Part shown: in pieces, positions 46,975-64,000 of the stretch | Layout of the letters: each line of letters opens with the position of its first letter | How positions within the stretch are numbered: position 1 is the stretch's first letter | NCBI GenBank assembly: GCA_021783135.1 | Contig: JAJXUE010000007.1 | Location: forward strand, 15,136-79,135 | Source: Bacillota bacterium | GTDB lineage: Bacteria > Bacillota > Desulfitobacteriia > Desulfitobacteriales > JAJXUE01 | DNA length: 64,000 nt | Direction of reading: 5' to 3' | Made by a program: the position numbers and the translations under genes | The notes under the pieces: model-generated | The model's database searches: none | Told to the model about the DNA's origin: nothing | What the model saw: only the letters and a program-made list of their open reading frames with translations

Positions 46975-47011
46975 ATTTGCAGGGAACTCTTACTTAAAAC
47001 AGTATAGTAGT

Positions 47012-47051
47012 AAAAAGCGGTTGCATTTTCAAAAGATGCAACCGCTTTTTT
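47012..47051 (+). terminator. Intrinsic terminator
   Basis: 15-bp perfect stem AAAAAGCGGTTGCAT / ATGCAACCGCTTTTT, a 9-nt loop and a T-run. Confidence 0.85.
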
Positions 47052-47088
47052 ATTTCTCAAACTCTATTAAGGAAAGGATTGGTACAGG

Positions 47089-49440: not shown

Positions 49441-49580
49441 ATGAGTAAAATGTTTTCATTGGTAGCACCAAGAATATAGTATGGAACAGCATTTGCTTTC
49501 CAAGATCTTATTTTCTAGGAATGACTTTTCTCTCTCATAGCAAGACCTTTGGCAATCACCGATTGCACTACCGATGAACA

Positions 49581-49985
49581 TCAGCCACCGGCAGGATTTT
49601 TAGTCAGACATTCACACCCTGTATTGGCTCCCGTATGCCTCTTAATATCTTCCAATGTTGAACAGCATTGTGCTTCAGCTACATGATATAAGATCTCCTC
49701 CTCCTTAACATTTGCACAGTAACAAATTGGAATTGGGGGAGGAACGTTTTTAAACCAAATCTTGTTGACCAATTGGTCTTGACTAATGGTCATCTTACTG
49801 TTTTGTGTGTAATAAGCGACTTCACATTCGGGAGTTCTACACAAGAAAAAATGTTCTTCTTCTTCAATTTCAACGCCAGGTTGTACCTGATGTTCAACTG
49901 TTTCCTTACGTACTTTCTGCCCTATCCCATTACAAACAGGGCAATCCGGAATTACTTTTGAATTTGCGGATAGTTCAATAATCAT
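49581..49985 (-). CDS. Cysteine-rich metal-binding protein: N-terminal Zn-ribbon-like CxxC...CxxxC plus C-terminal BFD-like CxC...CxC (CopZ N-terminal-domain-like)
   Basis: CPVCNG...CRTPEC, then ICYCANV...(about 30 aa)...GCEC. The architecture is as recalled for the A. fulgidus CopZ N-domain family. TTG 49991 is an alternative start. Confidence 0.55.
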   Translation of the reverse strand: MIIELSANSKVIPDCPVCNGIGQKVRKETVEHQVQPGVEIEEEEHFFLCRTPECEVAYYTQNSKMTISQDQLVNKIWFKNVPPPIPICYCANVKEEEILYHVAEAQCCSTLEDIKRHTGANTGCECLTKNPAGG

Positions 49986-50061
49986 GAGCAAACACTTCTT
50001 TCACAACAACTTGCGTGTATTTAATTGACCTCCAGTTTTTGTCCTTCGGTTGATAGATCTT

Positions 50062-50091
50062 TTTGAAAAAGACCGGGAAACTATCCCGGCC
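50062..50091 (-). terminator. Intrinsic terminator after the thioredoxin-like gene (minus strand)
   Basis: On the minus strand: GGCCGGGATAGTTTCCCGGTC followed by TTTTT. Confidence 0.55.
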
Positions 50092-50127
50092 CATACAATT
50101 AAAATAAATCGTTCTTGGCGTTTACAT

Positions 50128-50400
50128 TTATTGACCTAGTCCGGCTCTTTTTAGTGTTTCATAGTCAATTCCCCTGTTGCTGCAGCAATCCACTAACTTT
50201 CCGTTGATAGCAACGGCAGGAACCGATTTAACGCCGTACTGCTCGGCCTTTTCAACGCATTCATTAGTATCACACTTTTTGTTTAAGTCGTATACCTTCA
50301 CTTCGCAGTTGGGACAAGCTAGAGTCTTTATTTCTTTTACAGCATTCTCACAGATGTAGCAACCAGCCGTAAAAATTTCAATCAGCCTCTTGTTAGCCAT
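50128..50400 (-). CDS. Thioredoxin-fold small redox protein (MTH895/Thioredoxin_3-like), Cys-rich
   Basis: 90 aa with CYIC and CPNC motifs plus four more Cys residues and the SVPAVAINGK pattern. ATG 50400 lies 6 nt after AAGGAGGTG and overlaps the merR stop. Confidence 0.65.
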   Translation of the reverse strand: MANKRLIEIFTAGCYICENAVKEIKTLACPNCEVKVYDLNKKCDTNECVEKAEQYGVKSVPAVAINGKLVDCCSNRGIDYETLKRAGLGQ

Positions 50401-50809
50401 TTTCCTCACCTCCTTCCGACAACCTTTCTACAATAGGACAACTATGAACAGGCCCTTGGTCGGGACATCTGCTCGATAAATCTTGTAGAACGCTTTTGAT
50501 GCTTTGTAGGTCACGTATTTTGGACTCTATCTCCTTTATCTTTTGTGAGGCAAATAGCCGAACTTCCCGACAACCAGAACTTTCGCTCTCAGTTATACTA
50601 AGAAGTTTTTTAATTACCGAAAGAGTAAACCCTAAATCTTGAGAGCGTTTTATGAACCTAATTCGCTGAATCACTTCAGGTGGAAAGATTCGGTAACCAG
50701 ATTTTGTTCGTGGGGGTTCCGATATCAAGCCTAATCTTTCATAATACCTAATCGTCTCGATATTTACGCCAGCGTTTTTAGCTAATTCGCTAATAGTCAG
50801 TCCATTCAT
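50393..50809 (-). CDS. merR: MerR-family metal-responsive regulator with Hg(II)-type cysteine triad
   Basis: HTH LTISELAKNAGVNIETIRYYERLGLI. Cys80, Cys115 and Cys124 have spacings of 35 and 9, identical to the recalled MerR triads (Tn501 C82/C117/C126; Bacillus C79/C114/C123). Confidence 0.8.
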   Translation of the reverse strand: MNGLTISELAKNAGVNIETIRYYERLGLISEPPRTKSGYRIFPPEVIQRIRFIKRSQDLGFTLSVIKKLLSITESESSGCREVRLFASQKIKEIESKIRDLQSIKSVLQDLSSRCPDQGPVHSCPIVERLSEGGEENG

Positions 50810-50828
50810 TTGCTCACCTCACATGTCT

Positions 50829-50860
50829 AGTATAAAGTCTGTAGTTAGGTACGGTGTCAA
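50829..50860 (-). promoter_or_regulatory. MerR-type promoter with over-long spacer (TTGACA, 20 nt, TATACT)
   Basis: The minus strand reads TTGACA CCGTACCTAACTACAGACTT TATACT, 19 nt upstream of the merR ATG. A 19-20 bp spacer is the hallmark of MerR-activated promoters. Confidence 0.6.
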
Positions 50861-50928
50861 GGGTTTATTAGCACCATTTTAACATATCCTTATATGGAGT
50901 AAGATAAGCAAGCTGATCATGGGTATCA

Positions 50929-51239
50929 GAGTTCAAGGCTGCCCTTAAACATGAAGAATGCACAGACCTTGACTGGGCAGCAGACATTTCGCAAAACCTT
51001 GGCTGTTATGACTTTTATTTCTCACTGACATCACCGGAGGAATATGGCGTGCGCACATTACAGGCAGCGGATATATGAATTCCCTTGAACCGGTATTATG
51101 CTGTTTTGACTTTGAGCAGTACGGAAGGGATCAGATAGCAGCCGGGGGTACAGTGACAACAGAATATGGTATGATTGCCCGCAATGAAAAGGAATTTTAC
51201 TTCGACTACTATACCCCGCCGTCTACACGCAGCAATTGA
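50929..51239 (+). pseudogene. 5'-truncated, frameshifted remnant of an ArdA-like gene
   Basis: EFKAALKHEECTDLDWAADISQNLGCYDFYFSLTSPEEYG...* (stop 51076-78), then in another frame ...CCFDFEQYGRDQIAAGGTVTTEYGMIARNEKEFYFDY. This is colinear with the C-terminus of the ORF at 62840 (KYKAALQYEYCTDLDLAIDIAQNLDCYSFYSSLCSPEDYG...FLDFRQYGEAKMKEHGVKFTDYGLICRNEKEFVFEF). Confidence 0.75.
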
Positions 51240-51304
51240 TATAGTGCCTTTTGGTTTTCAAAAACTGAAAGGCATTTTTTATTTAAATAAATAGGAGGGA
51301 AAAA

Positions 51305-52171
51305 ATGCTTAAATTAATTATCAGCAACACCCAAAAAGATGAACATGGGCAGCAGCTTGCGGTGCACGTTGAGCTTCCCGCGGCAGAGGAAACGCTTCAA
51401 AAAGCTGTCGGAGAAATCGGATTGAGCGATTTCGACAACGGCGGCTATGAGATCATTGGTCACTCCTTCGGAAAATATGAGGACCTGCAGAACAACATCC
51501 CAGGAGGCGCCAACATCAATGAACTCAATCTCCTTGCCCATAAGTTCAAAGGATTTACTGAAGAACAGGCTGAGGATTTCATGTCCCTGCTCACAGACTG
51601 CGGGGATATTACGGTCAAAGACCTCATCAACAAGGCGTACTACCTTGAAGACGACTCCTATGAAATATGGCATGGCGTCACGGATTTAGATGAGCTTGGA
51701 CACCGTTTTGTAGAGGAAAAAGCACCGGATCTGCCGGAGGAAATCTTTGAAAACATTGACTATGAGGATGTAGGCTACCATGTGCAGTCCAATGACCATG
51801 GCGAGTTTACTAATGCCGGATATATTCGCAACTCCAATGCGGTAGTGGACGAGGTATACGATGGCACTAACCTCATTGAACTGATTGCCAAAGAACGGGA
51901 GAAGCAAAAATCGTTGAAAAGTAAAGACGGATCTTTAAGTAAAGAGGATGTAATGATTAAAGCAACTATCGATGGTCTGACTGCTACTGCTGTAGAAAAA
52001 GCTTGTGTTCTTGGAGTGGAAGCAACAGAGGATATCGGTGAACTTCGTAAAACGGTAGCTGAACTGATCCGTTTTTGGAGCCTTGATGAGCGATGGCTTG
52101 AACAGTTTGATATGGAGGTTCAAACCGTCATGGAGGGTACGGTGAAGCAGAGCGGCATGCAGATAAACTAA
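51305..52171 (+). CDS. ArdA-like anti-restriction protein, single module plus ~90-aa C-terminal extension
   Basis: MLKLII start like its paralogs. Module end is FENIDYEDVGYHVQSNDHGEFTNAGYI. Strong SD (AGGAGGG). It ends 13 nt before the first pilus gene, with no terminator between them. Confidence 0.6.
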   Translation: MLKLIISNTQKDEHGQQLAVHVELPAAEETLQKAVGEIGLSDFDNGGYEIIGHSFGKYEDLQNNIPGGANINELNLLAHKFKGFTEEQAEDFMSLLTDCGDITVKDLINKAYYLEDDSYEIWHGVTDLDELGHRFVEEKAPDLPEEIFENIDYEDVGYHVQSNDHGEFTNAGYIRNSNAVVDEVYDGTNLIELIAKEREKQKSLKSKDGSLSKEDVMIKATIDGLTATAVEKACVLGVEATEDIGELRKTVAELIRFWSLDERWLEQFDMEVQTVMEGTVKQSGMQIN

Positions 52172-52184
52172 ATTCCTTGAAGGA

Positions 52185-52916
52185 GTGATGAATAAGTTGA
52201 AGATACTCAAGAACCGGATATTTTTAAGCGTCCTCTGCATTGTCCTGGCAGGAGCCATTTCTTTTTTGCTCCTGCCGAAGTTTTATGCAGACAAGGGTGC
52301 GACAGTGATGGTGCTTCGGGCTGCGGAGGACATCCCGGCAGGCACAAAGATACAGAGTAAATATCTTGCTATGGTGGAGGTGGGAAAATTCGGTTTGCCC
52401 GATGCCGTCATCAAAGATAAGGTCTTGGCTGAAGGGAAGATCGCGCAGACTGACATTGCGAAGGGGGACTACGTGTTTACCCAAAAGATCGGTGACTTTG
52501 TCGCCGATGAAAAGCTGGACCGTATTGCCAGGGATAATAAACGGCTGGTTACCATCAGTGTGCCAAGCATTGCCGCAGGGCTCTCCTCCCATTTAGAAAG
52601 CGGCGACATTGTGACAGTGGCTGTCTTTTCAAATCAAAAAAAAGAGGGGGACGCAAGTCAAAGCACTCCCGCCCAGGTTATCCTCTACCCTGAACTGAAA
52701 GGACTGGAGGTTTACAGTGTGGAGAATGCCCGCACACAGAGCACCGCCCAGGTCCGAAAGCAGCAAGCGGAAAATCAGCAGTCTTCCAGCGATCCCATCC
52801 CCAAGGCGGTTACCCTGATAGCTACCGAAGCGCAGGCAGCGAAACTCATCGAAGCCGAATACACGGGCAAGCTGCATCTGATCTTTGAAAAAAGGGGGGT
52901 AAGCCATGAGCAGTAA
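52185..52916 (+). CDS. cpaB: Flp pilus assembly protein CpaB-like (SAF domain plus RcpC/CpaB region)
   Basis: N-terminal TM, SAF-like VLRAAEDIPAGTKIQSKYLAMVEV, and ...LVTISV...GD.V.V pattern. The exact start is uncertain. Confidence 0.65.
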   Translation: MMNKLKILKNRIFLSVLCIVLAGAISFLLLPKFYADKGATVMVLRAAEDIPAGTKIQSKYLAMVEVGKFGLPDAVIKDKVLAEGKIAQTDIAKGDYVFTQKIGDFVADEKLDRIARDNKRLVTISVPSIAAGLSSHLESGDIVTVAVFSNQKKEGDASQSTPAQVILYPELKGLEVYSVENARTQSTAQVRKQQAENQQSSSDPIPKAVTLIATEAQAAKLIEAEYTGKLHLIFEKRGVSHEQ

Positions 52917-53643
52917 AATCATCACTGTTTGGGGCAAGGGCAACAGCGGAAAAACCACTTTTGCGGTCAACTTAGCCTGCGCTTTGGCAAACCGTGACCA
53001 CCTTGTGGGGCTCATTTCCTCCAACCTGATCTACGGCGACCTGCAGGTGTATTTTGGGCAGAGCATACCACCGGAAAAGGGACTGTTCCGTGCGCTCCAT
53101 GAAGACAATCCCAATGTGGGTGAGAAGTTTATGGAGGCCGGGGAAAGTAAAAATCTCTTTTTTCTGTCCGTACCCAATCATTACACAGGGCTTTTATGTG
53201 ACAGCGTATCCCTCCAAAGCGTGGAAAGGCTCATCACCGCATCCACTCTCCTGTTCGACATCTTACTGATTGACGGCTCGGGGGATCTAACCAATCCCAT
53301 ATCCGGAACAGGGCTCTGGCTGGCGGAAAAGGTGTACACCCTGTACAGGCCGTCTGCCTCTGCCCCTATGTGGCATAAAGGAGTAGAGGATTTTGTCCAG
53401 GAACTTCATATCGCCGACAAGCAAATCAATGTAATGCAAACACCGAATGGTGAGTTCGATGACAAAACCTTTAAGAGTCTTATAGAGCTTTCCTTTAAAT
53501 ATGAACTTCCCTTTGTAAAGCAAGCAGGTGAGCTTGAAAACGCCGGTACTCCGGTGTTTTTTTATGAGGATCGAGGGTGCAGACAGTACAGAAGAGTCCT
53601 GGAAAAAATCTCAGATGAACTATGCGGAGGAAAGGACCAATGA
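52906..53643 (+). CDS. ParA/MinD-type ATPase, TadZ/CpaE-like pilus localisation protein
   Basis: Deviant Walker A VWGKGNSGKTTFAVNLA. 245 aa. Overlaps both neighbours (11-nt and ATGA overlaps). Confidence 0.65.
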   Translation: MSSKIITVWGKGNSGKTTFAVNLACALANRDHLVGLISSNLIYGDLQVYFGQSIPPEKGLFRALHEDNPNVGEKFMEAGESKNLFFLSVPNHYTGLLCDSVSLQSVERLITASTLLFDILLIDGSGDLTNPISGTGLWLAEKVYTLYRPSASAPMWHKGVEDFVQELHIADKQINVMQTPNGEFDDKTFKSLIELSFKYELPFVKQAGELENAGTPVFFYEDRGCRQYRRVLEKISDELCGGKDQ

Positions 53644-55034
53644 ACAAGGGATTTTCAGTCAATGAACTGATCTACAAGGCCAACAAGCAGGGCTCCGACA
53701 GCGGGGAGAACAGCCTGGAAGCCCAGGACTACGGCGACATTCTGGATAAATTGCAGCGGATTATCTCTAAAAACCACTCCACCGAATTGGCACAGGTGCT
53801 GTATTCGGAAGAAGCGGAGGGAAAGCTGAAGAACCTCATCATGCAGTATTTGAATAGTGAACGGATGGTGGCAAAGGGGATTCAAAATATTTCTGAGCTG
53901 GTCGATAGGGTATACAACGATATGGCAGGCATGGGGATTTTATCGGAATACCTGAAGGACAGCGAGGTTGAAGAGATCAACGTCAATGGGTACAACGGAG
54001 TATGGGTTTTATACAAGGATAAAAAGGTGCGGCTCCCGGTAACCTTCAGCAGCCCGGAGGCTTGCTCCAACATCGCCAAGAAAATGAGCCGCTTTGGCAA
54101 TGTCATCCTGGATGGCTCAAAGCCTATAGGCGACAGCTTTATTTCACGGGGCATCCGCATGTCCGGTGCCATTGTACCCTGCGTTGATTTCGATGCCGGT
54201 GCCATTGCTTCCATCAGAAAGCAAAAGCCGTCCTATATCACAAGAGAAAACCTGATTTATTGGGGGACAGCTACAGAAGATGAGCTGGATTTTCTCACCC
54301 TCTGCGTTAATAACGGCATATCGGTAGCCATCGCTGGGGCAACCGGCAGCGGAAAGACCTCCGATATGGGATATATTCTAAGCTGTATTTCAAGTGATAA
54401 AAGAATCGTAACCATAGAGGACACCCGCGAACTGACTCTGGTCCAAGTGGATGAAAACGGCGTAATGGTCAACGATGTCATTCACCTTTTGACAAAGGAA
54501 GAACCCAATCCCATTACCATGCTGGACCTGTTGAAGCTGTCTTTGAGGCTCCACCCGGCAATCCTTGTCCCGGCTGAGATGAGGGGGAAGGAAGCCCTGA
54601 CGGTGCAGGAAGCAGGACGTACAGGGCACACCATCGTCAGCACTCTGCATGCCAACAGTGCCAGGACAGCCTATGAAAGAATCCTGACCATGTGCCTGGA
54701 AGCCGGAACCTCCTTGTCGGAAGAAAGGTTGCTTAAAAATATCGTAGAAGCTTTTCCCATTATGGTCTTTAAAATGCAGTTGCCCGACCAGTCCCGAAAG
54801 TACATGGAAATCTTCGAGGCCACCGGGGTAAAAGATGGAGAGTTGGCAGGCAATACCCTTTTCCGATACGACATTGATCATTATGAAAAAGACGAAGCTG
54901 GAAGAATCAAAACGGTTGTAGGAAGTCACAAGCACATAGGGCATATATCCCAGACCCTTGCCGAGAGGCTCTTGATCAATGGGGTTGAACGAAAGGAAAT
55001 TTGCCGTTTCGCAGGAAACAAGTTTAAAAATTGA
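53640..55034 (+). CDS. cpaF: CpaF/TadA-family secretion ATPase (T2SS-E/VirB11 superfamily)
   Basis: Walker A GATGSGKTS, Asp box VTIEDTRELT, His box GHTIVSTLHANSA. ATG 53640 overlaps the upstream TGA. Confidence 0.85.
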   Translation: MNKGFSVNELIYKANKQGSDSGENSLEAQDYGDILDKLQRIISKNHSTELAQVLYSEEAEGKLKNLIMQYLNSERMVAKGIQNISELVDRVYNDMAGMGILSEYLKDSEVEEINVNGYNGVWVLYKDKKVRLPVTFSSPEACSNIAKKMSRFGNVILDGSKPIGDSFISRGIRMSGAIVPCVDFDAGAIASIRKQKPSYITRENLIYWGTATEDELDFLTLCVNNGISVAIAGATGSGKTSDMGYILSCISSDKRIVTIEDTRELTLVQVDENGVMVNDVIHLLTKEEPNPITMLDLLKLSLRLHPAILVPAEMRGKEALTVQEAGRTGHTIVSTLHANSARTAYERILTMCLEAGTSLSEERLLKNIVEAFPIMVFKMQLPDQSRKYMEIFEATGVKDGELAGNTLFRYDIDHYEKDEAGRIKTVVGSHKHIGHISQTLAERLLINGVERKEICRFAGNKFKN

Positions 55035-55047
55035 AGGGAGGTTGACT

Positions 55048-55962
55048 ATGAATAGCATCCAGGGTTCCCTTGCCTTTGTCTTTGTCCTGATCAGCCTTGC
55101 CCTTTTCCTCCTGCTGAAGCTTAACCCTTTTGCAGTGGAGAAAAACACTTTGAAACAGCGGCGGTTGTATCTGTCTAGGACAAAGCTGAAAATCAGCGAG
55201 AGAGTGATCCTCCGGTTCACAACCCTGTTCCGGCAAACCAGATACACGCTTAAGAAATTTATCCTGATGGTTGCCGCAGCATTTGTGTCGGGTTTTTTGG
55301 CGGGGGTTTTGCTTTTTAACAACGCTGGCTTAGCAGCGGTTACAGCAGTCTGCCTTATCCCTGCTCCTTACTTTTACCTGACTGTGAAAAGTTCCAGAGC
55401 AGCGAGGGAAGAAATTGAGGGGTTGGAAAATACCATGTCCATCATCACCAACGCCTATGCTGGATGTGACGATATTATCAAGGCGGTGGAAACCTATGTC
55501 GAAGAGAAGAACCGCTATACCCCTGTGGAGTTAATGAAGCCAACACCCTTCGATGAATTTATCTCAGAAATAAAGCTTATAAATCCCAACATAGAACATG
55601 GGCTGTACCGCCTGTCTGCTAAAATCAAAAACCGATACTTTGCCGAGTGGATAAAAATGTTGATTCTCTGCTATCACGACAGGCGGCTGAAATTTGCCCT
55701 GTTTCCCGTGATAAAGTCGATGAATGATGCCAAGGCCATGCAGATTGAAAGTGACAGCATGATGAGCAGGGTATGGCGGGATTATCTGATGACGGTGGGC
55801 ATGATGTTCAGTATTATTCCATTGATGCGTTTTTCAAATGCCGAATGGTTTGCCATTCTGACCGGAACCACCCTAGGAAAATTACTGATTGTCGTCATGC
55901 TCGTAACCGCTCTGGCAACTTCGTTCTTCGTGATGAAGATGACCAGGCCTGCCAACCGATAG
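55048..55962 (+). CDS. tadB: TadB-like type II secretion system F-family membrane protein
   Basis: N-terminal TM, cytoplasmic helical domain and C-terminal TM pair. It is in the canonical position after cpaF. ATG lies 7 nt after GGGAGG. Confidence 0.65.
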   Translation: MNSIQGSLAFVFVLISLALFLLLKLNPFAVEKNTLKQRRLYLSRTKLKISERVILRFTTLFRQTRYTLKKFILMVAAAFVSGFLAGVLLFNNAGLAAVTAVCLIPAPYFYLTVKSSRAAREEIEGLENTMSIITNAYAGCDDIIKAVETYVEEKNRYTPVELMKPTPFDEFISEIKLINPNIEHGLYRLSAKIKNRYFAEWIKMLILCYHDRRLKFALFPVIKSMNDAKAMQIESDSMMSRVWRDYLMTVGMMFSIIPLMRFSNAEWFAILTGTTLGKLLIVVMLVTALATSFFVMKMTRPANR

Positions 55963-56001: not shown

Positions 56002-56907
56002 TTGTTCTATCAAATCATCGTCTTTGTCCTGCTGACTGCGGCAGGATTTTTAATTTGCAGGCAAATACTCAAAATACCCAAGCTGAGCATGAAAAAAAAC
56101 ATCAAAAACTTACAGGTAGAAAAAGAAAAAACGGGAGCAAGGTTGCTCAACCTTTTTGTGATGCCCCTTGTAAAGCCGGTATCCCGATTGATCAGAATTG
56201 AACCGGAGAAAGAAGCAAAAATGGCGTCAATGCTAAGACGTGGAGGACTTGCGCTAACACCAAAGGAATATCATGCACGTGCTCTCATCTGTGCTGCTTT
56301 CACCCTGCCGCTCTTGATTCTGCTTTTGGCAATCGGAGCAACAAACATTGCTCCTGCAATTCTTATCTTTTCGGTGGTAGTATATTTCCACTTCATGACC
56401 GACCTCAAAGACAAGCTGAAAGAGAAAAAGGAATTAATCGAAATAGAACTTCCAAGTTTTGTTCGCTCCATCCTCTATAAGCTTGAAGATGTGCGGGGCG
56501 GCAACGAAAATACGGTTGTCCAGGTGGACCTGATCCAGATATTTGAGGACTATCTAAAGGTAGCGAGTGAGGTTTTCTACTATGACATTGCGGTTCTGAT
56601 CATGGAGATGAAAGCCAAGGACATAGAAACAGCGCTTCGAAACTTCAGTGAGCGTGTCGGACTTCTTGAGGTATCCTTTTTGGTCAATGCCCTTATCGGC
56701 CTATACCGCGGAGAACATCAGGGCGAGGCTCTAATGTATCTTGCCAAGGATATGGACATCAAGGCGAAGGAAGCCCTGCGCAAAAATCTGGGCAAGCTGC
56801 CCGGCAAAATAAAAATGGCATCCATACCCCTTGTGGTAGTGACCCTGGCAAGCCTTTTATATGTTATAGGCTCCCATTTAGTCCGATCCATGGGGGGCCT
56901 TTTTTGA
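56002..56907 (+). CDS. tadC: TadC-like type II secretion system F-family membrane protein
   Basis: Same architecture as the preceding gene (a second T2SS-F paralog). TTG start 7 nt after GGGAGG. Confidence 0.65.
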   Translation: MFYQIIVFVLLTAAGFLICRQILKIPKLSMKKNIKNLQVEKEKTGARLLNLFVMPLVKPVSRLIRIEPEKEAKMASMLRRGGLALTPKEYHARALICAAFTLPLLILLLAIGATNIAPAILIFSVVVYFHFMTDLKDKLKEKKELIEIELPSFVRSILYKLEDVRGGNENTVVQVDLIQIFEDYLKVASEVFYYDIAVLIMEMKAKDIETALRNFSERVGLLEVSFLVNALIGLYRGEHQGEALMYLAKDMDIKAKEALRKNLGKLPGKIKMASIPLVVVTLASLLYVIGSHLVRSMGGLF

Positions 56908-56962
56908 TGTGAAAACGGGGCAACCCTTTTCAAATAAAACTATATTATTCAGGAGGTAAAGC

Positions 56963-57214
56963 ATGAAAAACGGAACAAACACAATCCAAATCACGGAGGA
57001 AAGGAGGTCAAACCCCATGAGAAACAAAATGGCAAACGCCTTTTCAAAGGCAAGAGGACTTATGGTTAACAAGTCCGGTGACCAGATGACAGGCTGGCTC
57101 ATTGTCGTACTGATCGTAGTGGTAGTGGGTGCAGTATTCATGACCCTGTATCAGGGTTCCATTACGCAAATCTGGAACAGTATTGTCACCAAGATTACAA
57201 GTCTTTTGGGCTAA
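56963..57214 (+). CDS. Flp-like type IVc pilin candidate 1
   Basis: Basic leader ending ...NKSG, then DQMTGW and a 20-aa hydrophobic helix. The mature part would be about 44 aa. ATG 57017 is an alternative start and aligns better with paralog 2. Confidence 0.55.
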   Translation: MKNGTNTIQITEERRSNPMRNKMANAFSKARGLMVNKSGDQMTGWLIVVLIVVVVGAVFMTLYQGSITQIWNSIVTKITSLLG

Positions 57215-57240
57215 ATAACGGCAAACTGTAAAATTACCCA

Positions 57241-57279
57241 CAAAGGTAAAAAGGAGAAACTTTCTCCCTTTTACCTTTG
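57241..57279 (+). other. Long hairpin after pilin gene 1 (attenuator or 3' stabiliser)
   Basis: 19-bp stem CAAAGGTAAAAAGGAGAAA / TTTCTCCCTTTTACCTTTG with one mismatch and a 1-nt loop. No canonical U-tract follows. Confidence 0.55.
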
Positions 57280-57377
57280 ATGAAATGTTTTGCAACTGAT
57301 ATTACGGGCCTCAACTCTGGTAAAACCTTAAAAAATCAAACTGAAATCAAAAAATAACTATACGGAGGCATTTTTCT

Positions 57378-57587
57378 ATGATGAGAACTTTGAGAAACAA
57401 AATGGCGATGGCAGGCTTAAAGGCTAGGAAAGTATTGACCAATCAATCCGGCGATCAGATGACAGGCTGGCTGATCGTTGTACTGATCGTAGTCGTCGTC
57501 GGTGCGGTATTTATGACGCTTTACCAGGGTTCTATTACGCAGATTTGGAACAGTATTGTAACCAAAATCACCGGCCTTTTGAGCTAA
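57378..57587 (+). CDS. Flp-like type IVc pilin candidate 2 (paralog of 56963-57214)
   Basis: SGDQMTGWLIVVLIVVVVGAVFMTLYQGSITQIWNSIVTKIT is identical to paralog 1 over 42 aa. The leader differs. It has its own SD (ACGGAGG). Confidence 0.55.
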   Translation: MMRTLRNKMAMAGLKARKVLTNQSGDQMTGWLIVVLIVVVVGAVFMTLYQGSITQIWNSIVTKITGLLS

Positions 57588-57637: not shown

Positions 57638-58126
57638 ATGAACAGGCAGTGCCGGAGCTTATGGGGGAGATGTTCTCCCCCTTTTTCTTTGAAAAAGGTG
57701 TTGGTTAATCGAAAAGGTAGTGCCTATTATGAACTGATTATCAAAACCTTGGTGGTCATTACACTGATGGCGACGGTGATGTCCTTCTTAAGCATCTTCA
57801 CCACCTATCTGAGTCTTAACCAGGTCTGCCGCCGGGTGGTCCGGGTCATTGAGCTGGAGGGACAGGTATCGGACAATGCATATGATGTTTTTTATCGGCT
57901 CAAGGAACAAACCGGGCTGTCTCCTGAAATGAGCATCGGGGATGTCAATTATTGTGATGAACAAAACCAAAAAATTCAGCTAAGAGATACTTTTACAGTA
58001 AAGATGAAATACAACTATGCCTTTACGGTGTTTCGGCCTTCCTCCTCTCCACCGGTGCAAATCATCATACCCATGGAGGTGCGCATCACGGGCATGTCGG
58101 AAAAATATTGGAAGCTTTTAGAGTGA
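57638..58126 (+). CDS. TadE-like minor pilin / pseudopilin candidate (DUF4320-like)
   Basis: ...NRKG/SAYYELIIKTLVVITLMATVM has Gly, then Glu at +5, then a hydrophobic helix, which is a class III signal-peptide-like site. The start is uncertain (ORF open from 57545). Confidence 0.5.
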   Translation: MNRQCRSLWGRCSPPFSLKKVLVNRKGSAYYELIIKTLVVITLMATVMSFLSIFTTYLSLNQVCRRVVRVIELEGQVSDNAYDVFYRLKEQTGLSPEMSIGDVNYCDEQNQKIQLRDTFTVKMKYNYAFTVFRPSSSPPVQIIIPMEVRITGMSEKYWKLLE

Positions 58127-58152: not shown

Positions 58153-58638
58153 GTGGGCAAAACCGGACCCATTTTAAAAAGCAAAAAAGGCGATGGGCTG
58201 GTGTTTATCTTGATCCTCATCTTTTTTATTATGACCCTTGCAGCCATCGTCATTGAATATTTCCGCATGGACAGCCTGTACCAGCAGGTGGAATATGTGC
58301 TCCAGCGGGGAGTGAATTCCTCCGTGGAGTACGCCATGCTGGACGAATACCGCAAAGACGGCTATGCCCGGATGGACAGCGCCCTTGCGGAAGAACAGCT
58401 CTACGGCTATCTTCATGAAAGCATGCAGCTGGACCGAGATCTGAACAAGTATTCCGGGGAGCAATGGGTGTACACCCTTGAAATCCAGAGCCTCACCGCA
58501 ACCGATGATCCGCCCCGGCTCATCTTGAAAGGGCAGTTGAGAACCCGGAGCGTTTTTAGTTTCCTGACTGGCGAGGTGCGGCTGCCCTTTACTCTCTCCA
58601 GCAGCAACAACAGAATTGATGAAGGAGGTTCCCCATGA
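58153..58638 (+). CDS. TadE/TadG-like minor pilin candidate
   Basis: ...KSKKGDGLVFILILIFFIMTLAAIVIEYF N-terminal hydrophobic helix. GTG 58153 lies 8 nt after GGGAGGG. Its 3' end overlaps the next gene (ATGA). Confidence 0.45.
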   Translation: MGKTGPILKSKKGDGLVFILILIFFIMTLAAIVIEYFRMDSLYQQVEYVLQRGVNSSVEYAMLDEYRKDGYARMDSALAEEQLYGYLHESMQLDRDLNKYSGEQWVYTLEIQSLTATDDPPRLILKGQLRTRSVFSFLTGEVRLPFTLSSSNNRIDEGGSP

Positions 58639-61600
58639 AGCAAAAAGTAATTATTGCTATACCCTTGGCGTTTTTATGCTGTCTGCTATTTTCAACGCAA
58701 GTCTTTGCCCTGTCCGGCAGCGACATTACGCTGAAAATACGCTCTCCCGTAAACAGCCTGACCAGTGAAAGCGGTGTGATCGCGGTGGAGCAGTTTCCGG
58801 CAGAAATTGCCATCAGCGTTGCGGCAAAGGCGGGCAATTTGGCAGGAATACAATTAAGCCATAACGGTCAGACCCTGGAGATTCCGGCGGACCACATTCT
58901 GACCATTGCGAATAAAGAAGCCTGCGGGGTGTATACCCTGACAGCGAAAACAGATGGGGGCGCAGTCCTCACCATAAGCACAAATGTAGTATTCCAGGTA
59001 AAAGCCACATACAATATCCGCTACCGCACGGTAGGGATGAATTTGAAGGAAGCCTATGATGGAGCAGACAAGCTAAAGACCTTCCCCACACCCCAGCGCA
59101 TTGACCTGGTGCAGGCCAACACCATCGCCGGATACGAGCAGAAACGCTTTGCCGGGCTGATCGGCAGGAGCGACGGCAGGACCTACACGTTGAAGGGCAG
59201 TCTGGTGGTGGAGGTTTACGACTATTCCACCGGGAAGGTCATCGGGACCTATGATGCAAATCAGGATTTTGATGCCCTGACTAAAGGTTTTCATTGGACC
59301 ACCAAGAGCCTCATGGCCTTTGAAACCATGCGGAACACGGCAATCACCTATCAAGCCCCTGTGAAAATTGACGTCCAGGCTACATGGTGCAGTGAAGACA
59401 AGCAGGAGGTGTACGGCAAAGCTACGGCACAGGACAGGGGTGTGCCGGAATACCTCTATCCCTACCAGACTACCAGCGTCACCTTCTCAAAGGATGATAT
59501 CCCCCTATCGCGCAACTATATCTATAGAGGTCTGGAATGGGATTACAAACCGGAAACTGCCGGATACACCGATGGGGAAAGTCAGACCCAAACGGTAATT
59601 ACTCAGAAAATCAATTATATGATTCCAGTAGCGAATTTTTACTTCAAGTTTAAAAAACAGGATGGCAACGACCTTTCCGTGAGCATCCACGCCCCTGAAA
59701 CCGTCTACCGAGGGGATAGCTATTCTTTCGAGGAGGTTTTTACCAACCATGGCGCAGCACCTGCCTATGATGTGCCCTTGATCGGCACCGTAGACCGGGA
59801 GCAGATGAAAGAAATCCCTGCCAAGCAGGATTTCTCGCCTAACGAAAGCAAAACCTTCACCCTCACACGGAATACTGACAAAGCAGGGGCAGTCATAACG
59901 TTGTGGGCGCAGATCGAAGTGCCCGAGGGATTTATGGATAAGAACCCGGAGAACAATACCGCGACATCGGTCATCCGGGTGGTGGAAAAACCGGAGCCGA
60001 CCCCAAGCCAGGGGAAGAACCCCGAACCGGACAAAGAAAATCCGCCACCGGCGGAAAATCCCGACCCGGAAAAGCTGTGTGATGAATCGGCAAGCATTGC
60101 AGCGCCGCCCACCGTTTACGAAGGGGAGACTTATCGCTTTACGGTGAGCTTTACCAACCATTCCGACAGGATGCTGAAGGATGCAGGGGTACAGGGGAAA
60201 AACAATGAGGTCGTTTTAGACTCAATTCCCAAAGCGCTTGACTTCAATCCCCTGGAAACCAAGACCTATACCCGCACCGGACAGGCGGGGCATGTGGGTG
60301 AGGTATATAACCTGTGGGCGAATATCGGAGTGCCCGAGGGCTTCCAGGATGAAAATCCGGTCGATAACACCGCGGCTTCCAAAATTACTGTTGTGGCAAA
60401 ACCCTCGGGCAATCCGCCCAGAAACTCGGATAATCCACCCAACAATCCGGATAATCCGCCGAAAAACCTGGACAATCCACCTAAAAATCCGGATAATCCG
60501 CCGAAAAACCCGGACAATCCACCTAAAAATCCGGATAATCCACCGACAAACCCAGACAATCCACCTGAAAATCCGAATAACCCGCCAACGAATCCGGTTC
60601 CCCCCCATGATCCCGGACATCCGCCCGTCGACCCGGTGGTGCCGCAGGAGAAGCTGTGCGATGTATGGGTGAACCTGTCCTACCCGCCCACGGTCTATGA
60701 GCAGGAGGAATATAGCTTTACTGTGTACTTCGGCAATGACACGGATAAAGCGCTGTCAGGGGTAAGCTTAAACGCTTCCATTGACGGTAAGGCAGTTTCA
60801 GCCGTACCGACTGCGGCAGATTTCCAAGCCCATGAAACTAAAGCCTTCCTTGTCAAAGGCAAGGCAGGAGAAAAAGGCACAACCATCCGACTGTCGGCCC
60901 AGGTGTCGCCACCTGCAGAGTACAGGGATACCAACACAAGCAACAACCGAGCTGAGGCAGAGCTTTCTGTAGTGGAGCGTCCCTATGACTTGGATGTGCA
61001 GCGGATCACGCCCGACTGGTACAAGGAGAATCAGACGGTCATCAGCACCATCAAGGTGTCAAACCGGGGAAGCCTGGACTTTACGCCTGGACAGAAGGTT
61101 TCAGTCCAGTTTGAAGTCCCGGAGCTTTTACTTAAAAAACGTATTGATGCTATCGTCATGGAAAAGGATACATGGAACGTCGTATCGGTCAAATGGGATA
61201 CCCCCAACGTGCAGGCCGATAAAAACATCACCCTGATTGCGGTCATCAATCCCGACCAAGTCCTGGACAATGAAACATCCAACGCCAACAACACCTATAC
61301 CCAAAAGGCCATCATCAAAAATGTAACCTATGATGAGCCGGAAGAGAATACAACCATTCCTGCACCACCGCCAAGAAGTGAGCAGCCCAGGGTGACCTGG
61401 AAGGAGCAGCAATATGAAAACGACCGGTTTGTTTGGAAAGACTTCTACGCCGAGCTAAAAGTAGATGCCGTCCTTGACTATGAAACAAAGGCAAAAGGCT
61501 ATATCAAATCGGGATATGGTTTTTCCATCAATGTTACGACCTCTGTGAATACCAACTATGATAAGTCGGAGCTGATTACTGCGCCGCAGACTGCCGAGGT

Positions 61601-61874
61601 CTATCTGCCCCAGTACCGCTATGAAACAGCCATACCACTAATGAAGGAGGGCGACCATTTTACATTCAAAGAAAATCTCACTTCACCCTTTCGATACAAG
61701 AAGCAATATGTCCCGGTATGGTTCCCCGATGACAGGGACTATATCGTGCAGCTCCTTGTCACCGATGTGCACACTCCCGGAGGTACCCTATCTAAATGGA
61801 TCACCGGAGGAAATCTGAAAATGAAGGTGGTTGACAGCATGTACTCCGATGATGTCACCACGGGAAGTCCATGA
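58635..61874 (+). CDS. Secreted 1079-aa CARDB-repeat protein with Pro/Asn-rich heptad stalk (candidate pilus-associated adhesin)
   Basis: Signal peptide MKQKVIIAIPLAFLCCLLFSTQVFA. Four CARDB-like modules of about 110 aa each end in E/D-N-x-x-N-N (about 59672-59995, 60074-60410, 60652-60985, 60985-61320). There is a (D-N-P-P-x-N-P)n linker and no LPXTG motif. Confidence 0.7.
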   Translation: MKQKVIIAIPLAFLCCLLFSTQVFALSGSDITLKIRSPVNSLTSESGVIAVEQFPAEIAISVAAKAGNLAGIQLSHNGQTLEIPADHILTIANKEACGVYTLTAKTDGGAVLTISTNVVFQVKATYNIRYRTVGMNLKEAYDGADKLKTFPTPQRIDLVQANTIAGYEQKRFAGLIGRSDGRTYTLKGSLVVEVYDYSTGKVIGTYDANQDFDALTKGFHWTTKSLMAFETMRNTAITYQAPVKIDVQATWCSEDKQEVYGKATAQDRGVPEYLYPYQTTSVTFSKDDIPLSRNYIYRGLEWDYKPETAGYTDGESQTQTVITQKINYMIPVANFYFKFKKQDGNDLSVSIHAPETVYRGDSYSFEEVFTNHGAAPAYDVPLIGTVDREQMKEIPAKQDFSPNESKTFTLTRNTDKAGAVITLWAQIEVPEGFMDKNPENNTATSVIRVVEKPEPTPSQGKNPEPDKENPPPAENPDPEKLCDESASIAAPPTVYEGETYRFTVSFTNHSDRMLKDAGVQGKNNEVVLDSIPKALDFNPLETKTYTRTGQAGHVGEVYNLWANIGVPEGFQDENPVDNTAASKITVVAKPSGNPPRNSDNPPNNPDNPPKNLDNPPKNPDNPPKNPDNPPKNPDNPPTNPDNPPENPNNPPTNPVPPHDPGHPPVDPVVPQEKLCDVWVNLSYPPTVYEQEEYSFTVYFGNDTDKALSGVSLNASIDGKAVSAVPTAADFQAHETKAFLVKGKAGEKGTTIRLSAQVSPPAEYRDTNTSNNRAEAELSVVERPYDLDVQRITPDWYKENQTVISTIKVSNRGSLDFTPGQKVSVQFEVPELLLKKRIDAIVMEKDTWNVVSVKWDTPNVQADKNITLIAVINPDQVLDNETSNANNTYTQKAIIKNVTYDEPEENTTIPAPPPRSEQPRVTWKEQQYENDRFVWKDFYAELKVDAVLDYETKAKGYIKSGYGFSINVTTSVNTNYDKSELITAPQTAEVYLPQYRYETAIPLMKEGDHFTFKENLTSPFRYKKQYVPVWFPDDRDYIVQLLVTDVHTPGGTLSKWITGGNLKMKVVDSMYSDDVTTGSP
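60408..60596 (+). repeat. In-frame 21-nt tandem repeat, 9 units, encoding (D/G/N)NPPxN(P/L/S)
   Basis: Units were read directly. The pair of units at 60450-60491 is repeated at 60492-60533 with 41/42 identity. Confidence 0.9.
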
Positions 61875-62284
61875 TGCTGCTGCTTTACGCCATCCCGATG
61901 GTCTGTGCTGCCATCACGGATTGGAAAAAACGGATTATTCCCGATTGGACATGGATTGCCATTCTTATGGTGGGATTTGCTTCTGCGGTCATCAATGGTA
62001 AAGGAATCTTATATATTCCCCTGCTTGAAAGATTTACGGGACTTTTGTTCCCGGCAGTCTGCCTTCTTATGATTGCTTTCAAATGGGGCGGTGTTGGTGG
62101 AGGAGATATTAAGCTGATGGCAGCCTTAGGCTTTTGTTTCGGGCTTTACGGACTTGTAGCCATCCTCTTTTTTGCTGTCATCCCTGCCTGCATTTATGCC
62201 AGAGCGACAAAGCAAAGGAGCGTGCCTTTGGCCGTATTTTTGTGCATCGGTTTCTTTGTATATGCCGGTCTTTTACTTTCATAG
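61871..62284 (+). CDS. A24-family prepilin peptidase (TadV/CpaA-like)
   Basis: 137-aa polytopic protein with two Asp motifs (AITDWKKRIIPD; GGGDIKLMAALG). ATGA overlap with the upstream gene. Confidence 0.75.
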   Translation: MMLLLYAIPMVCAAITDWKKRIIPDWTWIAILMVGFASAVINGKGILYIPLLERFTGLLFPAVCLLMIAFKWGGVGGGDIKLMAALGFCFGLYGLVAILFFAVIPACIYARATKQRSVPLAVFLCIGFFVYAGLLLS

Positions 62285-62839: not shown

Positions 62840-64000
62840 TTGAATGAAATAAAAATAACGGTTTTAAGAGATGATCTCTGCGATAACTCCAGCTATATCG
62901 GTGCACACCTCTGTCTACCTGCAACGAATGCCGAAATACAGGATGCCCTTGAAAAAGCAAGGATCGATGATGAGCATCCAGATTTTATGGTAGTGGATTA
63001 TGCGTGTGGGCAGGATTACTTAAACGAGCTTCTGCCGAAGAAGGCTTCGCTTTATGAGCTTGACTACCTCGCAAGGCGGCTGGCCAGTATGGATGATTTT
63101 GAAAAAGTAGCTTTTGAGGGAGTAGTAAAAATGGAGGGAGCGCCTGACCTTGTTAAGCTCATCAACCTCACCTACAACCTCGCCGATTGTAATGTAGCCT
63201 TTGCAGTGTACAATGACAAGCAGCTCGGCAAATTTTATGTCGACAATGAGTTCATAACGGAGCTGGAGAAAGTGCCTGAAAAAGTGCTGCAATACCTCGA
63301 CTATGAAAAGGTGGGACGTATCCACAGAGAGGCAGAAAAGGGTGTGTTCACGAAAACCGGTTATGTAGTGCAATCAGAGCCGGATATAAAGGTTGTCTAT
63401 GACAGCACCAACATTCCCAAGCCCGATGACGATAGCGGATATGTTTTCAAGCTGTATCTTATAGAAGGATGTTTTGAACCGGAAAAAGCAAAAGGGGTTT
63501 GGCTGAAGCTTCCTGCATCGGAGGCAGAAATCGTGTCGGCCCTGGCGGAGATCGGGGTGGCTTCTTTATTTGATTGCGTTTTTACCCACTGCGAAAGCAG
63601 CATGCCCTGCTTCGAGGATGTGTTCTCTGAAAGTGAGGACATAGAAATGCTGAATATCTTAAGCAATGCTATTTCAAAAATCATAGATAGCAATATGGGC
63701 ACTAAGTACAAAGCTGCCCTTCAATATGAATACTGCACCGATCTGGACTTGGCCATTGACATTGCACAAAACCTGGACTGCTACAGCTTTTATTCCTCTC
63801 TTTGCTCACCAGAGGACTATGGACGGCAGGCACTGCTCAAAGCATCCGGGCTCCCGCCCGATGATATAGCCTTTAAGTTTCTTGATTTCAGACAGTACGG
63901 TGAAGCAAAAATGAAGGAGCATGGGGTGAAATTCACAGATTACGGATTGATTTGCCGCAACGAGAAAGAGTTTGTGTTCGAATTTTGTACCAGACCGCAA
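62840..64000 (+). CDS. ArdA-like anti-restriction protein, at least two modules, 3' end outside the window (absent from the ORF track because no stop is reached)
   Basis: Frame is open from TTG 62840 (7 nt after GGGAGG) to nt 64000. Module ends are LQYLDYEKVGRIHREAEKGVFTKTGYVV and FKFLDFRQYGEAKMKEHGVKFTDYGLIC. Confidence 0.65.
   Translation, partial: MNEIKITVLRDDLCDNSSYIGAHLCLPATNAEIQDALEKARIDDEHPDFMVVDYACGQDYLNELLPKKASLYELDYLARRLASMDDFEKVAFEGVVKMEGAPDLVKLINLTYNLADCNVAFAVYNDKQLGKFYVDNEFITELEKVPEKVLQYLDYEKVGRIHREAEKGVFTKTGYVVQSEPDIKVVYDSTNIPKPDDDSGYVFKLYLIEGCFEPEKAKGVWLKLPASEAEIVSALAEIGVASLFDCVFTHCESSMPCFEDVFSESEDIEMLNILSNAISKIIDSNMGTKYKAALQYEYCTDLDLAIDIAQNLDCYSFYSSLCSPEDYGRQALLKASGLPPDDIAFKFLDFRQYGEAKMKEHGVKFTDYGLICRNEKEFVFEFCTRPQ

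Follow-up and report, generated by a model that had tools for sequence, protein, structure and literature searches.

Tandem genes for a predicted Flp/Tad-type prepilin without Glu5 in a Tad-like operon of Clostridia

More than one small pilin gene can be present per Tad system: Aggregatibacter actinomycetemcomitans has flp-1 and flp-2, and the paralogues of such multi-copy flp systems differ in the mature part of the protein. Haemophilus ducreyi also has several, flp1-flp2-flp3 (PMC3201912), and in Bdellovibrio the flp genes are differentially regulated (PMC5430801). Among the closest described major subunits, Flp1 of A. actinomycetemcomitans and PilA of Caulobacter crescentus (PDB 8U1K; PMC10710030) are made as small precursors whose long, basic leader has Gly as its last residue. 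The Flp processing motif, G/XXXXEY, places Glu at position +5 and Tyr at +6, and the mature peptides of Flp/Fap pilins, expected to comprise 40–60 residues, lack a globular domain. The Tad pilin of Caulobacter is a single helix in which no contact between subunits involves Glu5, a residue that archaeal type IV pili do not conserve (PMC10710030). Archaeal type IV pilins and archaellins, which have class III signal peptides, likewise show no Glu5 requirement and combine a basic leader and a Gly at −1 with a continuous helix, to which a C-terminal globular domain is added. In the Clostridia, a group of Tad-like loci termed 'no Flp_2' has been described by Imam et al. 2011, in which no prepilin gene was found; the members, which include loci of Desulfitobacterium hafniense, Clostridium kluyveri and C. 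bolteae among others, resemble each other and lie far from the remaining tad loci (PMC3244431).

The locus described here lies in a 64,000-nucleotide stretch of DNA from a Bacillota bacterium, referred to below as the window, in which the operon genes described are on the forward strand. The first gene of the Tad-like operon (52185–52916) encodes an RcpC/CpaB-like protein with SAF and RcpC domains (Pfam RcpC, E = 2.6e-17; SAF, E = 1.6e-8). The second product (52906–53643) is a ParA/MinD-type P-loop protein with weak N-terminal matches to CbiA (1.2e-5), ParA (2.2e-5) and MinD (2.9e-5), which by its position would be the TadZ-like component. It is followed by a CpaF/TadA-type secretion ATPase (53622–55034; Pfam T2SSE, E = 2e-27), whose best NCBIfam match is a TadA family (5.9e-39, below the curated cut-off), and by two polytopic membrane proteins in the TadB (54979–55962) and TadC (56002–56907) positions. 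The former is assigned from its position and hydrophobic segments, and the latter has no Pfam match, with some of its homologues labelled 'FlaJ' by JGI. Neither of these putative platform proteins matches Pfam T2SSF, even at E ≤ 10, or any PDB profile, and in being too divergent for T2SSF they would be unlike those of Flp/Tad systems; the AlphaFold2 (AF2) model of the TadC-position protein is all-helical (pLDDT 66) and its Foldseek comparison with the PDB was uninformative.

Downstream of the small genes that are the subject of this report lie two genes for putative TadE/F-like minor pilins. One (57698–58126) encodes a DUF4320 protein (Pfam, E = 1.6e-42), a probable minor pilin with the canonical prepilin motif RKG/SAYYEL, which has an acidic +5 residue; the motif [KR]G/SxYx[ED]L is kept in all 18 loci compared except L016, which has NG. 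The other (58153–58638) encodes a pilin-like protein of 161 residues that belongs to no Pfam family and in which KKG/DGLVF precedes about 20 hydrophobic residues, an N-terminal motif found in all loci. The next open reading frame (58635–61874), which contains a tandem repeat at 60398–60586, encodes a secreted protein of 1079 residues with PKNPDNP repeats and precomputed DUF8194/DUF8195 matches, a candidate tip or adhesin component. The operon also encodes a short TadV-type A24 prepilin peptidase of 137 residues with D17 and GGGD79 motifs (61871–62284), already named in the initial annotation and confirmed by Pfam (PF01478, E = 5.7e-17); its only NCBIfam matches are FlaK and EppA, both weak. 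In its ATPase, RcpC/CpaB, short A24 peptidase and pilin-like minor subunits the operon resembles Flp/Tad systems, whereas the host is monoderm and, unlike the Flp1 and PilA systems, there is no secretin.

Between the TadC-position gene and the DUF4320 gene lie gene A (57017–57214) and gene B (57378–57587), a pair to which the initial annotation had drawn attention and both of whose reading frames are present. Gene A encodes a 21-residue A-type leader, including its Ser-Gly, and a 44-residue mature peptide (DQMTGW...KITSLLG), and gene B a 25-residue B-type leader and a mature peptide of the same length (DQMTGW...KITGLLS). Codon-by-codon comparison bore out what had been claimed of the pair: the region SGDQMTGW...TKIT is identical in 42 of 42 residues, and 20 of the 42 codons differ, all at the third position and all synonymously. 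The TCC codon that opens this core is located at 57074 in gene A and 57447 in gene B, and the coordinates given earlier, 57066 and 57448, were off by 8 and 1 nt. The four C-terminal residues, SLLG in A and GLLS in B, account for two nonsynonymous codons, and the leaders (MRNKMANAFSKARGLMVNK and MMRTLRNKMAMAGLKARKVLTNQ) are as divergent as described. The full set of 46 codons contains 15 transitions and 8 transversions; for the identical core, a Nei–Gojobori comparison of A with B gave S = 30.7 sites, Sd = 20, pS = 0.65 and dS = 1.53, with Nd = 0 and dN 0. Such a codon pattern lies well outside what chance would produce in sequence that is non-coding or was recently duplicated.

The synonymous-only pattern is the norm across the family and not peculiar to this pair. 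Homologues number roughly 790. Our comparison set comprised 43 gene copies from 18 loci in at least nine genera of Clostridia; over 903 pairs, pS was 0.68 and pN 0.06, and one copy, L002_1, contains a divergent patch. Of the 46 mature codons, 31 are invariant at the protein level in all 43 copies and 28 of those 31 use more than one synonymous codon, so that the extreme purifying selection first proposed from the pair holds for the family. In the more distant loci (L005–L017), conservation within the locus is highest for the mature pilin, at 82–100% compared with 60–84% for the other products. Antisense open reading frames of 83–87 codons overlap the region, and conservation might in principle be due to one of these, or to an RNA element, rather than to the pilin frames. 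This explanation, to which we assign a negligible probability, is refuted by the codon-position pattern, since all 20 core differences are synonymous third-position changes in the forward frame and the same holds over the 43 copies; in addition, a scan of 45–64 kb found no Rfam family in 56.9–57.7 kb.

To speak of twins is too narrow a description of these genes. Two to four tandem copies are present in each of the 18 loci, always with exactly one A gene first and then one to three B genes, and birth and death of copies is apparent from young B–B pairs (dS 0.15–0.19) and one frameshifted copy. In a neighbour-joining tree of the leaders, A and B separate into two clean clades, both represented in 18/18 loci. 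Orthologues are only 1–4 nt apart and paralogues 16–22 nt, which shows that the A/B duplication is old, in line with the first reading of the pair, and leaves no sign of gene conversion. Recent duplication or ongoing gene conversion (concerted evolution) would be another route to identical products, and the mature proteins of A and B are indeed identical in the window and in loci L001 and L003. Most other A–B pairs have 2–9 nonsynonymous changes. Against this explanation, dS between the copies is 1.5, and the sequence that A and B share is the family consensus, so that retention of the ancestral state suffices to explain their identity. Synonymous divergence and the distances between orthologues and paralogues together refute this highly improbable explanation.

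It had also been suggested that the synonymous divergence suppresses homologous recombination between the copies. Such an effect may follow from the divergence; selection for it, on the other hand, was not seen. The longest identical stretch between the two cores is only 17 nt, below the minimal processing segments typical of homologous recombination, as would be expected if the genes had been recoded against RecA-mediated deletion or conversion between tandem copies. When 20 differences are placed at random among the 38 degenerate codons, though, the median longest run is also 17 nt (P(≤) = 0.71), and this agreement with chance gives nothing to suggest selection against recombination. Synonymous divergence is similarly saturated between loci (pS 0.69) and within loci (0.57), and the young B–B pairs persist; hence we consider selected recoding distinctly improbable.

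In both proteins, a basic leader that ends in Gly is followed by the sequence DQMTGW and the hydrophobic stretch LIVVLIVVVVGAVF. This Gly, at −1, shows no variation among 33 close and 38 distant homologues, nor across relatives of 22–64% identity, even those of 22–35%. The register across the predicted cleavage site is also maintained in distant relatives, G/DQMTGW aligning with G/ASMTEY and G/AGMIEY. Position +5 is Gly in 43/43 copies, with no acidic residue, and at +6 Trp replaces Tyr, by which aromatic character is kept; an acidic residue, Glu or Asp, is found at the aligned +5 of some of the distant relatives and of a DUF6133 paralogue. The proposal that these are prepilin-like proteins that depart from the Glu-Tyr of Flp pilins finds support in the invariant Gly and in the register with ASMTEY, AGMIEY and ENFVDS. 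No match to Pfam Flp_Fap (PF04964) was obtained for either protein at E ≤ 1, and Pfam and NCBIfam scans of both returned no significant family. The nearest profile families, DUF6133 (PF19629) and Flp1_like (PF16982), consist of uncharacterised small Firmicutes proteins: gene B scores 15.8 bits against DUF6133 (E = 0.016), below the gathering threshold of 27 bits, and of the 38 distant relatives 23 match DUF6133, nine Flp1_like and two Flp_Fap (best Flp_Fap E = 1.8e-4). Aligned by hhalign, the pilin family and the DUF6133 paralogue gave a probability of 89% (E = 2e-6), with the Gly residues superimposed (G/ENFVDS) and the Gly at +5 opposite the acidic Asp that the paralogue keeps; the relationship to DUF6133 is thus one supported at the level of profiles.

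The AF2 model of the gene B precursor (pLDDT 85) has a helix at residues 2–21, a break at NQSGD and a single helix from 27 to 68, and in the length of the mature peptide, the predicted single continuous helix and the lack of a globular domain the proteins resemble Flp/Tad major pilins. A Foldseek search of the PDB with this model gave no match, which is unsurprising for a single helix. Nor was anything significant found when PDB sequences were searched with profiles from close and extended alignments, the best match being to the signal peptide and N-terminus of 5z1l (E = 0.12), annotated 'flagellin', which we take to be an archaellin. Together with the FlaK and EppA matches of the peptidase, this non-significant match constitutes a weak likeness to the archaeal systems, whose pilins, unlike those of the window, carry a globular domain. 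The failure of curated pilin models and of the PDB-sequence searches, together with the missing Glu5, could instead indicate that the small proteins are other single-pass membrane peptides, such as assembly factors or peptides for exclusion or immunity. We regard this as improbable, because the genes stand where a pilin gene is expected, with a TadC-like gene before and minor-pilin genes after them, the operon has an A24 peptidase, an invariant Gly precedes the hydrophobic helix, homologous Flp-like and DUF6133 proteins bear E/D5, size and single-helix prediction are as in Tad pilins, and high-copy arrays with terminators behind them are typical of major subunits. Hence, the A and B proteins appear to represent an ultra-conserved, unannotated branch of Flp/Tad pilins without the usual Glu5, which would be cleaved after Gly by the operon's A24 peptidase and would form filaments. 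Our literature searches found no papers on DUF4320 or DUF6133 and, for Tad pili of Gram-positive conjugative elements, no description of this pilin family.

The two genes differ in their 5' regions. Upstream of gene A (56951–57019), two tandem Shine-Dalgarno/start pairs are kept in the alignment of 18 loci: AGGAGG at 56951–56956 with an in-frame upstream ATG at 56963, and AAGGAGG at 57001–57007 with the ATG at 57017. A longer gene A of 83 codons starting at 56963, despite having its own Shine-Dalgarno sequence, was set aside, and 57017 was taken as the pilin start, because substitutions in the extension are not enriched at third codon positions, which makes the stretch more UTR-like than coding, and because the upstream ATG is directly followed by TAA in L005 and L006. 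Gene B is preceded by ACGGAGG (57362–57368), 9 nt before its ATG.

The same features bear on why two gene classes are maintained. A and B might be non-redundant, their two leader classes and 5' regions providing separately controlled supply routes for the same subunit, with tandem Shine-Dalgarno/start pairs and possibly an upstream mini-ORF in A and with B copies that can amplify; the difference would then concern translational control, insertion or processing kinetics, or an action of the leader after cleavage. This is a possibility that we entertain tentatively. One A gene in first place with at least one B gene in every locus, the conserved tandem starts upstream of A, including the ATG-TAA of two loci, and a mature peptide in which the 43 copies show no A- or B-specific residue are all consistent with it, and a pure dosage role leaves the conservation of two leader classes in every locus unexplained. 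The leaders, however, are short and basic like those of any prepilin, the difference between the classes is mostly a 4-residue indel, and the UTR-like character of the region upstream of A, where substitutions are not concentrated at third positions, counts against a separate route as well.

The hairpin between the two genes (57239–57282, core 57241–57279), proposed earlier as a 19-bp structure, is real, with 17 contiguous pairs around one A/C mismatch plus two outer pairs. It has an inner GGAGAA/TTCTCC stem, is followed by CTTTTACCTT and is flagged as terminator-like; its folding energy is −21.5 kcal/mol (z = −6.3) and 0/200 shuffles fold as well. Behind the last pilin gene, an intrinsic-terminator-like hairpin (57663–57690; GGGGGAGA-TGT-TCTCCCCC then TTTTTCTTT) has 8 pairs, 6 of them GC, and a T-run, and is conserved behind the last copy in other loci. 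In nearly all loci a hairpin positionally equivalent to that of gene A is found, and a terminator-like hairpin stands behind every copy, the last included. The idea that the hairpin sets the stoichiometry of A and B did not hold, since the mature products are the same but for two of the last four residues and no meaningful ratio could be set. More likely roles are raising pilin expression relative to the downstream machinery, in which the hairpins would act as terminators, or stabilising mRNA.

Taken together, we consider it likely that A and B are tandem major-prepilin genes of a Tad-like (type IVc) pilus operon on an apparent integrative mobile element of Clostridia/Peptococcaceae. The precursors would carry a basic, probably helical leader of 21 (A) or 25 (B) residues ending in an invariant Ser/Asn-Gly, and cleavage after the Gly by the short A24 peptidase would release a 44-residue peptide that forms a single continuous α-helix like the Tad pilin of Caulobacter. 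Since such a filament would consist of helices and nothing else, nearly all of its residues would pack against several neighbours or form the surface; most amino-acid changes, with few exceptions, would then be purged, and synonymous change would drift to saturation. An A/B duplication older than the radiation of the element family would explain why the two genes are 16% apart in DNA yet specify the same mature protein, and B copies would keep duplicating and decaying. With its own ribosome-binding site and hairpin, each gene copy would contribute to making one subunit in large amounts compared with the products of the assembly genes downstream, and the multiple copies may thus serve dosage. 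In having several small pilin genes the operon is like the multi-copy flp systems described above, but its paralogues are near-identical in the mature peptide and differ mainly in the leader.

The operon looks as if it is part of a probable integrative mobile element, based on the ArdA genes that adjoin it and on its position beside a rumA-like methyltransferase gene; integrase, relaxase and T4SS genes were not seen in the DNA examined, and a tblastn search of PLSDB plasmids with the pilin gave no match. Strains of Desulfosporosinus and Dehalobacter carry the probable element. On another contig with a pilin array (DAIDQL010000005.1), there is a second Tad-like cluster headed by a genuine DUF6133 gene, whose product is the paralogue aligned above. 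A more far-reaching reading, which we think doubtful, is that the operon specifies an archaeal-style single-helix Tad pilus without Glu5 on a Gram-positive mobile element, used for transfer or adhesion and with leaders that have regulatory or functional roles. The same peptide, one that present pilin finders overlook, would then be made from two ancient gene classes, each with its own conserved leader and 5' control region, A with its tandem start or mini-ORF and B being amplifiable, and the element would also carry the second Tad-like cluster with its DUF6133 pilin.

Under the likely reading, of tandem major-prepilin genes, the A/B family is probably the major subunit that has been missing from a clade of Tad-like loci in Clostridia. 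The family also occurs in D. hafniense (P0096), as do the 'no Flp_2' loci (PMC3244431), and membership of the same clade is a lead; with Gly at +5, it would escape a search rule that asks for Glu or Asp at this position, a rule that under-detects bacterial Tad pilins. The family shows cleanly, in a natural setting, how tightly the sequence of an all-helical pilin can be constrained: its mature part is the slowest-evolving product of the operon, and surface pilins usually behave in the opposite way. Two conserved leader classes in front of one mature peptide raise the question of what prepilin leaders do, and the ArdA neighbours and the second Tad-like cluster on the same contig as an array mark this as a candidate for an accessory pilus carried by a mobile element of Gram-positive bacteria.

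The window carries two neighbouring candidate pilin genes on the forward strand, gene A (57017-57214, with an alternative in-frame ATG at 56963) and gene B (57378-57587), and no further copy of the pilin core is found elsewhere in the 64 kb window. The shared 42-codon core starts at the TCC of a Ser-Gly pair, at 57074 in gene A and 57447 in gene B; the initial annotation had placed these starts slightly off, at 57066 and 57448, but its claim of identity was borne out by a codon-by-codon comparison. All 42 residues are the same, 20 codons differ, each at the third position and synonymously, and divergence lies, as claimed, in the leaders and the last four residues (SLLG versus GLLS). A formal Nei-Gojobori calculation on the pair gives S = 30.7, Sd = 20, pS = 0.65, dS = 1.53 and dN = 0. 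The sequence common to A and B is the family consensus, and their identity is thus explained by both having kept the ancestral state.

A protein search returned 790 homologues with 80-99% identity from Dehalobacter, Desulfitobacterium, Desulfosporosinus, Pelotomaculum, Lutispora, Geosporobacter, Acetivibrio and metagenomes, nearly all annotated as hypothetical. Seventeen genomic loci, each with a tandem array of 2-4 pilin genes, were fetched and compared together with the window (18 loci, 43 gene copies). Across these copies, 31 of the 46 mature codons never alter the protein, and 28 of the 31 use several synonymous codons; over all 903 pairs, mean pS is 0.68 (saturated) and mean pN 0.06. Hence, the very strong purifying selection initially proposed for the window pair is general to the family rather than peculiar to these genes, which lie at its low end (Nd = 0). 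The family is narrow: among 1.84 billion representatives, a profile search recovered only 73 clusters. No product of the locus is as strongly conserved as the mature pilin (82-100% identity); for the ATPase, membrane proteins, DUF4320 protein and large protein, identity across the more distant loci (L005-L017) is 60-84%. The subunit of the Caulobacter Tad pilus is a single helix that contacts subunits S1, S3, S4, S7 and S10 and whose polar C-terminal half makes up the surface of the filament (PMC10710030). A 44-residue subunit without a globular domain would likewise have few positions free to vary and hence be tightly constrained, with which the conservation of the mature pilin is consistent.

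The pilin genes are part of an operon coding for an RcpC/CpaB protein, a ParA-type protein, a CpaF/TadA-type ATPase, two polytopic membrane proteins, pilins A and B, a DUF4320 protein, a 161-residue pilin-like protein, a 1079-residue repeat protein and a 137-residue A24 peptidase. The membrane proteins in the TadB and TadC positions (54979-55962 and 56002-56907) do not match T2SSF (PF00482) at a cut-off as loose as E <= 10, and their homologues lack Pfam annotation, a few being called FlaJ by JGI; they may be platform proteins that have diverged strongly, or proteins of another kind. DUF4320 is a Pfam domain of unknown function, and its protein here (57698-58126) has in nearly all loci a canonical prepilin N-terminus, [KR]G/SxYx[ED]L (the slash marks predicted cleavage), followed by hydrophobic residues; it is probably a minor pilin. 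The 161-residue ORF (58153-58638) has [KR]G/D before about 20 hydrophobic residues. The 1079-residue protein (58635-61874), a possible tip adhesin, has a signal-like N-terminal segment, DUF8194/DUF8195 matches and about eight copies of a 21-nt (PKNPDNP) tandem repeat at 60398-60586, and its length varies between close relatives (1065 versus 1079 residues).

Several observations, besides the operon itself, bear on the identity of the pilins. Among 38 distant members with 22-35% identity, the Gly preceding the hydrophobic helix is one of only two invariant columns, and several of these relatives have the canonical Flp motif (G/ASMTEY, G/AGMIEY or G/ASLWEY) in register with G/DQMTGW. Pfam assigns 23 of the 38 to DUF6133, nine to Flp1_like and two to Flp_Fap, and hhalign aligns the family with a DUF6133 protein from a second cluster, described below, Gly on Gly (probability 89%, E = 2e-6). 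An AlphaFold2 model shows a leader helix, a break at NQSGD and a single continuous helix over residues 27-68 (pLDDT 85). On this evidence, A and B most likely encode Flp-related Tad pilins whose Glu5-Tyr6 has changed to Gly5-Trp6, so that the earlier suggestion of a distinct subclass without Glu5 was largely right; predicted cleavage after the Gly before DQMTGW is supported by homology. In the Caulobacter pilin, Tyr6 holds the register and Glu5 touches no neighbouring subunit; conservation of Glu5 does not extend to archaeal T4P (PMC10710030).

Over 16.6 kb, the window matches contig DAIDQL010000005.1 (GCA_027447525.1) with 100% identity. Upstream of the operon is a rumA-like RNA methyltransferase gene (44488-45774), just past which the left element end probably lies. 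Flanking the operon are several ArdA antirestriction genes, a MerR/thioredoxin pair and DUF6075, D12 DNA methyltransferase, YodL and SpoVG genes. Together with whole-locus protein identities of 64-99% across genera, these neighbours indicate a mobile element. The ArdA-domain genes that bracket the operon number at least four or five (47089-52171, 62840-64000 and in downstream DNA), the MerR/thioredoxin pair (50128-50809) is divergently oriented with a CopZ-like gene called beside it on L019, and the D12 methyltransferase, MazE-like, YodL and two SpoVG genes lie downstream. A weak Rfam L20_leader match just upstream of the first ArdA gene (46943-47059; 28.8 bits versus a gathering threshold of 58.7, E = 0.043) is probably chance. 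No integrase, relaxase or T4SS genes were seen in the window and flanks, the pilin has no match in PLSDB plasmids, and 'ICE' would be an inferred label. About 5.2 kb beyond window position 64000, on the same contig, lies a second Tad-like cluster (L022:16815-20432), headed by a gene for a 77-residue DUF6133 protein (leader ...SQCG/ENFVDS..., Asp at +5) and also encoding a 107-residue GGGD-motif (peptidase) protein, an RcpC/SAF protein, a 271-residue protein and a T2SSE ATPase. The element thus seems to have two pilus systems, related to each other but built from distinct pilins.

The leaders form two clades, both present in 18 of 18 loci. The A-type leader (21 residues including Ser-Gly, M[RK]x[KR][MI]xNA...) always belongs to the first gene of the array, and the B-type leader (25 residues, MMxTLKNKM...) to the one to three copies that follow. 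In DNA sequence, window A differs from its L001 and L003 orthologues by 1-2 nt and window B from B of L001 and L002 by 4 nt, whereas A and B differ by 16-22 nt. Orthologues being closer than paralogues, recent gene conversion between A and B is ruled out and the duplication, judged from these sequences, predates the spread of the element family, largely as the initial annotation had it in calling both copies old and functional. B copies are still duplicating (B-B dS 0.19 in L002 and 0.15 in L009) and decaying (frameshift in L014:6288-6493), a history of birth-and-death evolution under constraint. One middle copy (L011:5771-5911) lacks a recognisable leader start of either type. In Ca. Dehalobacter alkaniphilus (L002), the A leader, B gene (4 nt) and flanks are close to the window (91% overall, TadC protein 99%), but mature A (L002:5305-5445 versus window 57074-57214) differs by 19 nt over the 126-nt core and 23 nt over 138 nt. 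This mosaic patch suggests that pilin segments have been exchanged between elements; no donor is found among the 18 loci. Two tandem Shine-Dalgarno/start pairs precede gene A (56951-57019; AGGAGG with ATG 56963, AAGGAGG with ATG 57017) and are kept across the 18 loci. The upstream start opens the reading frame of pilin A in most loci, extending it to 83 codons, and is an ATG-TAA start-stop in L005 and L006; it could be a mini-ORF or standby site for translational control.

The hairpin reported between the genes is real (57239-57282, core 57241-57279; -21.5 kcal/mol, z = -6.3), but its proposed role in setting A:B stoichiometry is not supported as stated. Such a ratio has little meaning because both genes yield the same mature product, and GC-rich hairpins of the GGGGAG...CTCCCC type with a T-rich tail follow practically every pilin copy in every locus, including the last of the array, with sequences unlike between loci. 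The T-tract is interrupted after gene A; after gene B, the hairpin (57663-57681) is followed by TTTTTCTTT, a textbook intrinsic terminator. A better fit would be that the hairpins attenuate read-through into the machinery genes or stabilise the mRNA. Nor is the suggested link between synonymous divergence and suppressed recombination supported as stated: the longest identical run between the cores, 17 nt, equals the median when 20 differences are placed randomly among the 38 degenerate codons (P = 0.71), and the spacing of the differences between the A and B cores gives no sign of such selection. Low recombination may be a consequence of the divergence.

Flp-like pilins without Tyr6 have been noted in Gram-positives, and the products of genes A and B are best taken as a variant within Tad/Flp pilins, a known class. 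Tandem multiple flp genes are likewise known from H. ducreyi (PMC3201912) and Bdellovibrio (PMC5430801); a literature search for DUF4320 and DUF6133 turned up no mention of either. The single feature without ready explanation is that two leader classes are kept universally for one mature peptide. Imam et al. 2011 described Clostridial Tad-like loci, one of them in D. hafniense, without a recognisable prepilin gene (PMC3244431). The present family occurs in D. hafniense, as found by protein search, and is a plausible candidate for the missing prepilin of those loci.
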